Assembly (NCBI GenBank): GCA_036172245.1
Contig: JAYWIR010000010.1
Span: 3,782,001-3,846,000, forward strand
Length of the DNA stretch: 64,000 bases
Direction: 5' to 3'
Origin: Raillietiella orientalis
Taxonomy: Eukaryota
In this document: one piece after another, positions 17,625 through 46,458 of the stretch
How the letters are laid out: each line of letters begins with the position of its first letter
How positions within the stretch are numbered: the stretch's first letter is position 1
Notes under the pieces: model-generated
Told to the model about the DNA's origin: nothing
Database searches by the model: none
The model's input: the letters and a program-made list of their open reading frames with translations, nothing else
Translations under genes and position numbers: made by a program

Positions 17625-19411
17625 TTAATAATACTTATTCAATGCTTTTTGAGCTGCTTCAATAAGGGGCACAAGTCGGTGTGTAGCTACTGCTTTTGTT
17701 AAGAAAATATGTGTCATTAATTCCTCTGCACTTTTGCGTAAGTCAACATCTACTTCCAAGCAACAATCCAGGAAATCCTAATGGTACTTATTGTGGACCA
17801 AAAAAGCTCATTTTTCAAATTCTTACCTGAAATGGAGCAGATAATGAGTCCCAATTTGAAATGTGAGGCTTTCCATTAGATGCAATTAAAAAAAGAACAC
17901 GAATGTGGGGCTCGCCAATATAAGGGGGTTCACCAGAAATCATCTCAATACCCATGATGCCTAGTGACCACACATCTACTTTCTTCCCATATTGTTTTCG
18001 CTTAACAATCTACAAAATGAGCAAATCATAAATACAAATGAATTTTTATGATTGATCAGCAAACCTCAGGAGCCATCCAGTATGGTGTTCCCACAACAGT
18101 CTGGCGCTTTTCATCTTCCTGTAAGTTTGCAGAGAAGCCAAAGTCAGTAACTTTAACTGAACCATCTTTGCAAAGTAGCACATTATCAGACTTTATATCT
18201 CGATGAATAATGTTCTGGAGAGAGGACAAAAAACAGAATATGAAATCTGGAAGAAAAATGCACTTTCATACTTTGGAATGCAAATATGCGATGCCCTGTA
18301 ATGTCTCCTTGCATACAGCAGCAATGTGTGCTTCTTTCATGACCACTTCTGTCACAACATCGGTTAAAGGTCCTCCTTCACACAGCTCCAACACAATCTG
18401 TTGAAATATGCATCAGTGTTCAGATTGGAAATCTAGTTTCTACCCAAATGTGCCAGCCTACTAAATACGAGTCCAAAAAGTTGACTAGGTTTCTGTGCTG
18501 TACTCCTCGCATTATTTGAAGTTCAGTTAAAATGAGTTGTTTGCGGTTTTGTTTATTAAAGTCAATATCTTTAACAGCTACTTTCTGCTGGGTCACAGTA
18601 TCCAGTGAAATGAAGACAGTGCCAGAAGCCCTGCTGCAGCTGGTACAAAAATTCATTCTTTTTTGTGCTCACCCTGCTCCCACTTGTGTTAACCGCTGAT
18701 ACCGCTGAAGAGGATTATCTATATTATTGCACACCTGCTTAATCTGTTCCACAAAATTAGTGGTGCTACATTTGTTAAGACATTCCTTTTTTCTCAATAG
18801 ACTCTCACCCTCACATGAGTTTGTCAAAGGAGACAGATGTTTATCTTCCTTTGACTATTCAACACATCAAGGTATTGTAACACAAATCTCAACCTGTATT
18901 TGATCCTCAGAACTTTTCACTTCTAACTCTTCTTGTTGATAATCTCTAAGTGATAAATCTTCAGTGGAAGAAATGGAACTCTCTTTCATTACATCTTCTA
19001 AGAGATATTCTTTGTACAAAAAAGTACATTATCTAGATTTTTACCAGACTCCAGCTGCAATTCTTCCTTAATACTATCTTCAGTATTGAGCCACTTGAAA
19101 CTATCTTGTTTCCTCCTCAGAGAATATGAATAGAAGCGAATAGCACTCACCACTGCATCAGGATGTTGTTCCTGCTCAGTAAGGCTGAAAGGAATAGAGG
19201 CAAACTTCATGAGAACTCATTACCTAATGTTACTCTGATCCACAAGGGCCTGCCATGCAACGGGCAACCCTTCTAATCTACCTGTCTTGGCATTTTTTGA
19301 TACATGGAAGGAATGCTTTACATCAATAGGTGTACCAATTACCATTTCACATTCTGAGAACTTTCTGTTCAACCACAGGGATTTTGAGAATAATTTTGTA
19401 ATGCTTTCCAT
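17625..19411 (-). CDS. Pak3: Group I p21-activated kinase, Pak3-like; 9 exons, 470 aa
   Basis: Exons 19411-19224, 19184-19045, 18997-18894, 18854-18673, 18630-18444, 18397-18272, 18214-18065, 18009-17827, 17777-17625 (1413 nt, all GT-AG). Motifs: [69 protein letters not shown]. Minus-strand AATAAA at 17495-17500. Confidence 0.95.
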
Positions 19412-44700: not shown

Positions 44701-46458
44701 AAAATGATGGCACGTTGGTTGCTGGGTGCTAAATCAGATGTTGTCTCAGCACAAAAGACCTTTAGAATGTTGAATGCTCTTATTGTGAATGGTGGAGAAT
44801 TATTGCAAGAAGGCACTTTGAGTCCAGCTGAGAGAGCATGGCTGCGCTTGGGTGCAGGTTGCTGTATGCTCAAAGTCTGTGAACAGAAGGGTGTTGGTGA
44901 CCAGTATACTGCGGAGCAGTTTTATAACCTTTCATTGCTCATGGTGGATCCATGTTTTGAAGTTCGTCGTTTATTTGCCCATAAGTTGCACAAAGGTTTA
45001 GGTAGACGATTACCCAACAAATGCTTACCTCTTGATTTCATGGGTTATTATGCTCTTGGTGGTCGTGAAGAGCAGCGAACCCTTCGTACAAAGATCAAGA
45101 GCTTTTTGCAAACAGATATAAGCCGACGTCGAGATTTCATGAAAACAATTCTCATGACGCAGGGAGGTAATTAAACTACATAACAAATGATCAGTAGCTG
45201 AGGGGATCTGTTTCCTAGTGGATAAGGCATCAGAACAGCTCTCCCACATCACTCCTGATTATATGCTTGTGTTTGCTGTTCCTGTGTTGGCTCATGATCC
45301 AGATTTCACCAATCCATTGGACATTGGTCAATTGCAGAAGAGACGCTCTTGTCTGTGGTTTTGCATGGAACCACTTGTCAGTCGCAATGAGAATTATTGC
45401 TTTGGTTTCTACATGGCTCTTCTGGAGCGCATGAAGAATCATGTGGATGCACTCCTTCCTGATGATGATCAAGCCAATCGAAAGTTGTGGGCAGTGTGTG
45501 ATCTGGCAACAGGCTTGCTTCTATCTAAAACAGTGAACTATGACCTCAAAGACTATGTGAATAAGGAACCTTCCATTTCACCATTGCTATTTCGCCCTCC
45601 CTCTGATCCTCTGTTTACAAACACAAAAGTGTATCTTCCCCCAGCCCTCCACTACCAGAACATGAAGAAGGCAACTATAACATCTTCTTTAGTTTCGGAA
45701 CGAAGGAGAACAAGACGTCGAAAAGATGAAGAAGAAAATGATGAAGAGGAGGAGGGACTGGACACTGATGATTTTGCAGGAGATCTTCTTTCTCAGCCAC
45801 CTCATCATATACCAGAGGTGTTTCAATCCACTGATTTATCTGCTTCTATTTTGTCAGAAGAAGAGAGTAGGTTTACTAAGACTCCCAAGCTAGCAGTGCC
45901 TAGAGTAGTGCCTGGGGCGGTGTCAGACGTTAATTCCTGCCAGTCTGGAGAGGATGCTGATACAAGTGCCAAAGACAGCAGCAGGTATAAGAGGAATTCA
46001 AGAAATATACAGGCATTGGGGAGGGGTTGTAGCATTTCTGATGCAGCAAAAGCATCAAGGAAGAAACCAACAGTTAGGAACGACAGTGATGGGTTAAACA
46101 GCCAGCAAAGAATCACGCATTTTTTTCCTCAAAGGAGCCAGGAAACCAATAGTTCACTGGGTGAGGCAAAAGAGCCTGAAGTGGTCCCTCGTAAACGGGG
46201 AAGGTATGGCATCAGGGGATATTGGATACAGAATAAAAACATTTCCGTTCAGACCTTCCACAAAACATGAATCTGTGATCTCCAAACTGGAGGACCCTGC
46301 TCATTGCCGTGCAATGATGTAAGTTTCTGTCAACATGTCTAGAATTGAAGGATTTTTCTTCTAGAAAGAAGCAGCTGGATGCTGTAGCAAATCATAAAGA
46401 ACCCGTGCGGAAGTCAGCACGTTTGGCTGCCATCGGATCACTGGAAGAAGAAGTATGA
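41787..46458 (+). CDS. PDS5: Sister chromatid cohesion protein PDS5; 13 exons, about 1375 aa
   Basis: Exons 41787-41909, 41951-42151, 42201-42385, 42430-42637, 42678-43718, 43760-43873, 43919-44317, 44359-44484, 44537-44644, 44689-45166, 45219-46203, 46253-46318, 46365-46458 (4128 nt). Motifs: [80 protein letters not shown]. Splicing at 46204-46252 restores the AT-hook RKRGRP. A possible extra in-frame upstream exon lies at 41406-41440. AATAAA at 46746. Confidence 0.96.

Follow-up and report, generated by a model that had tools for sequence, protein, structure and literature searches.

In Drosophila, introns of 40 to 50 nucleotides (nt) form a rare and slow tail below a peak at 60 to 70 nt, and the minimum distance from donor to branch point is near 35 nt (Pai et al. 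2017, PMC5762160). The lowest minimal-intron mode among the 105 arthropod rows tabulated by Gotoh 2018 (PMC6157073), two of them crustacean, is the 47.55 nt of Tribolium. The same table gives 45.9 nt for C. elegans, 42 to 45 nt for Strongyloides, Steinernema, and Meloidogyne, and 42 to 46 nt for many nematodes. Leptinotarsa is entered there with modes of 51.6 and 1086 nt, so a mixture of short and long introns amid loose intergenic DNA is not unusual. Here we describe the introns of the pentastomid Raillietiella orientalis, starting from a stretch of 64,000 nt (the window; positions 3782001 to 3846000 of contig C10, in an assembly of 210 Mb and 491 contigs) in which four genes are rich in introns below 50 nt. 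In a wider sample of the same genome, the peak of the short class moves upward with the GC (guanine-plus-cytosine) content of the gene.

The short introns resemble those of Tribolium, nematodes, and Oikopleura (intron quantiles 41/43/47; PMC13644364) in that a mode within 42 to 48 nt is followed by a tail of long introns. The mode of 43.7 nt nevertheless lies below all 105 arthropod rows of a table that is not split by GC content (PMC6157073). With the 40- to 50-nt introns of Drosophila they share their lengths, weak 3' splice sites, and little room for a pyrimidine tract, and they may share the branch motif, which in the fly lies near -14 (PMC5762160). They differ from them in that 40 to 50 nt is the peak of AT-rich (adenine-plus-thymine-rich) genes here, donor-to-branch distances would mostly be 27 to 36 nt, and long AT introns are equally weak. 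The regime itself, which the original prediction had put forward as new, is therefore anticipated by the fly, by Tribolium at 47.6 nt, and by the nematodes at 42 to 46 nt. Myxobolid and dicyemid parasites likewise combine short introns with retained U2AF1 and U2AF2, but theirs are 22 to 27 nt long and retain only GTa...AG as signals (Hadjez et al. 2026, PMC13644364), against at least 38 nt and GTRAGT...YAG here. In humans, SPF45/RBM17 is used by short introns whose tracts are truncated (Fukumura et al. 2021, PMC8363638), and the R. orientalis introns are similar in their truncated tract and in the presence of an SPF45 with G-patch and UHM domains. However, the truncated tract marks a short subset in humans, whereas weak tracts here follow the AT domain at any intron length. 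Regional composition also shapes splice signals in vertebrates, whose GC-levelled introns have similar exon and intron GC and tracts rich in C and poor in U (bioRxiv 10.64898/2026.03.20.713095; Lemaire et al. 2019, PMC6883713), an architecture that the preprint places in amphibians and amniotes. The introns of GC-rich R. orientalis genes show the same two features, but their short class is the longer one, unlike in humans, where GC-rich isochores hold smaller introns.

Intron lengths in the window and in a wider sample

The original prediction listed 34 introns in the PAK, ZRANB2-like, KIF18, and PDS5 genes of the window, and the lengths that it gave are exact. All 34 begin with GT and end with AG, and 27 do not exceed 49 nt. 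The introns were called from sequence by homology alignment, motif spacing, or frame continuity; homology or motif spacing fixes 22 of them, and frame continuity alone gives the other 12. We take them to be standard U2-type GT-AG introns belonging to the minimal-intron class. The window is split in composition: an AT-rich block of 34% GC at 14 to 42 kb (positions 14001..42000), which holds the beginning of PDS5 and the three other genes, adjoins a GC-rich block at 47 to 64 kb (47001..64000; 58% GC overall, maximum 64%). The latter offers no usable local contrast of introns, as the long open reading frames tested contained no Pfam family (0 of 39 in the window).

The wider sample comprised myosin, kinesin, CCT, and kinase genes found by Pfam, with introns taken from profile alignments. 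The protein-to-DNA aligner, which also served for the guide proteins of the window genes, had a flat intron cost, a 20-nt minimum, and GT-AG or GC-AG ends only, with neither a length prior nor a splice-site matrix. Introns were kept if 4 or more of 5 resampled profiles recovered them, with a flank score of at least 10 on each side and at most 1.5 gaps; from 671 and 147 candidates, 359 and 57 passed. Subtraction of 16 window introns left 400 at 122 outside loci, and four calls of 21 to 33 nt among these were judged alignment artefacts and were set aside, leaving 396 introns. With four conserved families, and short fetch windows for the kinases, the proportions are rough: 151 introns were 49 nt or shorter, 81 were 50 to 59 nt, 53 were 60 to 110 nt, and 111 were longer than 110 nt. 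The short class peaks at 42 to 48 nt and ends in a sharp floor at 38 nt, the shortest intron found, although the aligner permitted 20 nt. A two-component Frechet fit to all 396 introns placed the first mode at 43.7 nt (bootstrap range, 42.1 to 45.9), and the median was 69 nt in the myosins and kinesins, which were covered more fully. Thus, the expectation of a short class well under the fly peak, and not at 60 nt or above, held outside the window, and the 111 introns above 110 nt uphold the accompanying claim that short introns here are unlinked to general genome compaction.

GC content, the 3' splice signal, and the splicing machinery

The position of the short peak depends on the composition of the gene. 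Fitted first modes were 43.9 nt for genes with a GC content at third codon positions (GC3) below 0.5 (AT genes; 43.0 to 44.6 in 30 locus bootstraps), 49.1 nt at GC3 of 0.5 to 0.7, and 55.0 nt at GC3 of 0.7 or above (GC genes; 51.9 to 59.9). Among introns of up to 110 nt, 135 of 182 in AT genes were 49 nt or shorter, versus 2 of 57 in GC genes; counted by locus, the figures were 67 of 77 and 2 of 21. The per-locus correlation of length with GC3 was 0.54 (n = 113) and was present in three of the four families, with a within-family rho of 0.60 for myosins, 0.61 for kinesins, and 0.30 for kinases.

The intron's 3' end changes with composition as well. Pyrimidine fractions at -9..-5, -14..-10, and -19..-15 were 0.68, 0.57, and 0.51 in AT short introns and 0.82, 0.83, and 0.73 in GC short introns, where a C-rich tract of about 15 nt, 80 to 83% pyrimidine, extends to about -19. 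C makes up 0.49 and T 0.28 of positions -24..-5 in GC introns, whose 5' part is balanced in C and G (0.36/0.32) and whose 3' part is skewed (0.49/0.16). The nearest A at or beyond -11 has a median position of -13 in AT introns and -20 in GC introns. The difference of about 10 nt in tract extent agrees with the 11-nt shift of the mode. Exon and intron GC were 0.40 and 0.32 in AT domains and 0.59 and 0.66 in GC domains, the latter having no drop in GC from exon to intron, and G at +5 rose from 60% of AT introns to 91% of GC introns. Vertebrate GC-levelled short introns carry G triplets near the donor. The GC introns here differ from them in this respect, as they show no significant excess of G triplets over composition (32 versus 27.9 expected, p = 0.16), and G-triplet enhancers near the donor were rejected.

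Donors read GTRAGT and acceptors YAG, with a pyrimidine at -3 in 91 to 97%. Several acceptors had been described as purine-rich, and tracts as often absent. At -14..-5, 14 of the 34 window introns have 50% pyrimidine or less, so purine-rich acceptors do occur, but 15 have at least 70%, and the mean of 0.615 exceeds the 0.507 of intron interiors (p = 0.002). Short introns of the AT domains average 0.625 at these positions, against about 0.51 inside, and reach 83% at -5; 70 of 204 have 50% or less. Pyrimidines exceed the level of the interior (144 AT short introns, p = 1e-9), which rules out the absence of any tract; the AT-domain 3' signal is a short U-rich run, not a missing tract. Compressed 3' signals are to this extent supported. 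Long introns of AT domains are equally weak (0.635 versus 0.625, p = 0.53), which means that shortness is not the cause and that a weak tract is not a trait of miniaturised introns. AAG was likewise discarded as the typical short-intron acceptor, occurring in 11 of 135 AT introns of up to 49 nt and in 2 of 51 long ones.

Branch-like motifs had been placed about 8 to 14 nt from the intron end. In the window, YTRAY occurs at -8..-14 in 6 introns against 3.4 expected (p = 0.12). Over the 204 AT short introns there is no enrichment at -8..-11 (10 versus 11.2 expected), which speaks against a branch A there, and the KIF18 intron ending at 32970, offered as an example, would put it at -8. Weak clustering is seen at -12..-17 (31 versus 19.2; position-preserving permutation, p = 0.007, in a bin chosen post hoc), and for these motifs the distance from donor to A is mostly 27 to 36 nt.

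The splicing factors appear intact. U2AF65 (contig C68) has an RS-like region, a ULM, RRM1, RRM2, and a UHM, and its RRM exons match solved U2AF65 chains (E = 6e-33 and 7e-20). U2AF35 (L195) has its zinc fingers and UHM, SF1 (L192) a helix-hairpin match together with a ULM, KH-QUA2, and zinc knuckle recognized by eye, and SPF45 (L110) a G-patch match and a UHM that matches SPF45 structures (E = 3.7e-18). None of these four proteins shows the domain loss that had been suspected. The 5' end of U1 small nuclear RNA (snRNA) is canonical, and a search of the minor spliceosome limited to U12 snRNA found one copy (98.7 bits). To our knowledge, U12 snRNA has been lost in C. elegans and Oikopleura, unlike here. 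Of about 5,640 U2 snRNA candidates, 47 were scored and 46 of these matched; the five matches that were read all lack the 5' end (the first ~37 nt), and no U2 gene was obtained in full. These copies (L001 to L003, L190, and L191, on contigs C3, C34, C30, C19, and C10) share flanking sequence past the U2 3' end, and the 5'-truncated copies look like a U2-derived repeat family. Just downstream of KIF18, the window holds a U2 snRNA 5' fragment (35459-35495, minus strand; Rfam, 37.5 bits, below the gathering score) of about the first 37 nt. It ends in the branch-recognition region, is canonical as far as it reaches, and is complementary in extent to the 5'-truncated copies.

Some individual loci of the wider sample are of separate interest. 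A kinesin gene (L083, C71:203000-211000) has intron GC climbing from 36% to 63% along the gene, with intron lengths of 48, 53, 50, and 55 nt. An inverted duplicate kinesin pair lies on contig C2 (L085, C2:4019500-4027000, and C2:3990495-3991497); in the copy that was read, four short introns are G-rich, some with purine-rich acceptors, unlike other GC-rich introns. A CCT subunit gene (L007, C4:1818921-1820390) lacks introns throughout its domain, unlike its intron-rich paralogues.

Explanations for the shifted peak

We consider it probable that an intact spliceosome acts on introns whose lineage minimum has shrunk to nematode size, and that GC domains need a longer tract, which adds about 10 nt. 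In AT domains, the branch A would lie about 27 to 35 nt from the donor and 12 to 17 nt from the AG, with a U-rich run of 5 to 10 nt before the YAG. An AU-rich intron beside a more GC-rich exon probably helps to mark the intron, and AU-richness with a close branch point may let a minimal U-run and YAG suffice at 38 to 50 nt. AU-richness can substitute for a tract in plants. In GC domains the compositional contrast is gone and U and A are scarce, so the same machinery would depend on a C-rich tract of greater length and on conservation of G at +5; the tract would shift the branch A upstream and make the short class about 10 nt longer. The GC dependence of the minimum suggests that local sequence, and not the spliceosome alone, sets minimum intron size. 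Intron definition is a plausible hypothesis for the short introns.

Several results weigh against this reading. The sample covers four conserved gene families of the genome, and one of them, CCT, shows no trend (rho = -0.03, n = 39; the GC3 range of this family was not looked at). Within genes, length had a rho of -0.04 with intron GC and of 0.12 with local exon GC3 (p = 0.065, n = 252); with no clear within-gene effect, the dependence operates from gene to gene or domain to domain and may be regional in origin. The YTRAY excess was not reproduced in 28 newly added introns (3 versus 2.4). Total pairing of the donor with U1 is equal between domains (p = 0.2 to 0.4), which led us to reject the idea that GC introns pair more strongly with U1 overall. 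Finally, GC introns fold somewhat better than shuffled sequences (mean z, -0.79).

That the dependence lies between genes is what regional mutation would give, if GC-rich and probably high-recombination domains differed in indel balance or in slippage of C/T runs above a functional minimum of 38 to 40 nt everywhere. The GC short class is indeed far broader (46 to 105 nt), and its longest members are pyrimidine-enriched over much of their length. However, the lower edge shifts too, none of 57 GC introns being below 46 nt against the floor of 38 nt in AT genes, the extra pyrimidine is 3'-polarised and strand-asymmetric, and G at +5 increases in parallel; we regard this explanation as unlikely. 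That the lineage has come to recognise short introns in a U2AF-poor, SPF45-type manner seems rather improbable. The many AT short introns at or below 50% pyrimidine and the intact SPF45 would suit it, as would the human case, which works with U2AF65 in the cell and so makes an intact U2AF65 compatible (PMC8363638). It is opposed by the equally weak tract of AT long introns, by the persistent U-rich bias (83% pyrimidine at -5, 91% at -3), by the close match of the U2AF65 RRM exons to solved chains, and by the strong tracts kept in GC-domain introns. The lineage-wide drop in U2AF and tract dependence proposed at the outset finds no support either, with GC-domain tracts at 80 to 83% pyrimidine and the factors intact.

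Secondary structure could in principle shorten the effective distance from donor to branch, such that GC-rich introns need more bases. The median folding energy of the class highest in GC is -18.4 kcal/mol, versus -5.2 in the AT class, and the excess over shuffles persists in half-wise shuffles (z, -0.52). But length minus tract, a noisy measure, is similar in the two classes (39 versus 37 nt), and G triplets do not exceed composition; folding is thus very unlikely as the cause. Mis-called introns or assembly error could also give the pattern, and the 12 window introns without homology support and the four implausible calls among 400 count in favour of this. Yet independent guides agree to the base, donors show GTRAGT, and the 38-nt floor is sharp well above the aligner minimum, so that an artefact is scarcely credible.

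A stronger form of the preferred reading, in which an intact spliceosome meets longer tracts in GC domains, is offered tentatively. One spliceosome may use two minimal-intron geometries, nearly tract-free at 38 to 50 nt in AT domains and with a long C tract at 50 to 70 nt in GC domains. Isochore composition would in that case fix the minimum in cis, acting through the 3' site; recognition might be led by U2AF35/SPF45 in the one and by U2AF65 in the other, and the GC geometry would have converged on the vertebrate GC-levelled architecture.

Gene models, other observations, and significance

The PAK (STE20) kinase gene (17625..19411, minus strand; GC3 0.35, Pkinase match) has a putative start codon at 19411 and a spliced open frame of 451 amino acids, counted from near the start. 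Its introns are 19223-19185 (39 nt), 19044-18998 (47), 18893-18855 (39), 18672-18631 (42), 18443-18398 (46), 18271-18215 (57), 18064-18010 (55), and 17826-17778 (49). A kinase-profile alignment recovers the last five, in the kinase domain; the first three, each with a stop, follow from frame continuity. The gene at 28009..29014 (minus strand; GC3 0.38), with two RanBP2-type zinc fingers, is called ZRANB2-like after the original prediction, not from alignment of homologues. Its introns are 28952-28897 (56 nt), 28843-28804 (40), 28697-28653 (45), 28492-28447 (46), 28368-28324 (45), 28228-28187 (42), and 28135-28046 (90). Removing introns 1 and 3 restores zinc-finger spacing, and splicing leaves two complete finger motifs and an open frame. 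In other animals the RS domain of ZRANB2 is long; this protein ends at 213 amino acids with only a degenerate RS-like tail (28009-28250, minus strand), and its last two introns are putative.

The KIF18 kinesin-8 gene (31805..34916, plus strand; GC3 0.32; homologues named KIF18A/B) has an open frame of 918 amino acids and introns at 31984-32025 (42 nt), 32262-32345 (84), 32717-32760 (44), 32924-32970 (47, AAG acceptor), 33171-33215 (45), 33705-33749 (45), and 34645-34692 (48). Seven or eight of 8 guide proteins recover the first five. Two introns are uncertain, being multiples of three and free of stops and so possibly coding: 28368-28324 in ZRANB2 and 33705-33749 in KIF18, the latter recovered by 1 of 8 guides. 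PDS5 (41787..46458, plus strand; GC3 0.39; 1375 amino acids) is at most 65% identical to the crustacean and insect homologues found. Its introns are 41910-41950 (41 nt), 42152-42200 (49), 42386-42429 (44), 42638-42677 (40), 43719-43759 (41), 43874-43918 (45), 44318-44358 (41), 44485-44536 (52), 44645-44688 (44), 45167-45218 (52), 46204-46252 (49), and 46319-46364 (46). All 6 guide proteins recover the first ten, and the last two follow from frame continuity.

Between PAK and ZRANB2, a 187-amino-acid open frame (22174-22737, plus strand) is coiled-coil-like and has no Pfam match, and two diverged copies of an intergenic sequence of about 130 nt, recognized by eye, lie at 25461-25600 and 27310-27430. 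COX1 is nearest to Armillifer and Linguatula (72 to 73%), slightly above insects (68 to 71%), and in a tree it groups with three pentastomids (100/100); its branch there is long, and insects were the sole alternative included. Its 54 matches lie on many contigs, many being fragmentary or with stops, and represent many mitochondrial insertions in the nuclear genome. On these sequence data alone, the animal reads as a pancrustacean and probably as a pentastomid or a near relative, with branchiurans and cephalocarids as further candidates. The contig of the mitochondrial genome (C282) carries a duplication between cox1 and cox2 and, by eye, a trnD-like stretch directly after cox2, as in Armillifer (PMC12856591); ARAGORN found no tRNA on this contig.

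A literature search, with most subscription papers outside its scope, found nothing on point for pentastomid nuclear genomes or introns. A within-genome GC shift of the minimal-intron peak was not found in a search whose scope left out older subscription papers and preprint supplements. The short-intron regime is thus known in kind, and the GC-dependent shift of its peak is the new part; a mode lower than those of the tabulated arthropods is a modest record. Annotation of this genome will need a minimum intron of about 38 nt and GC-specific models. The minimal-intron peak is usually taken as one number per species. In R. orientalis, one trans machinery meets two peaks 11 nt apart, which makes the question of what sets the peak testable inside one genome.

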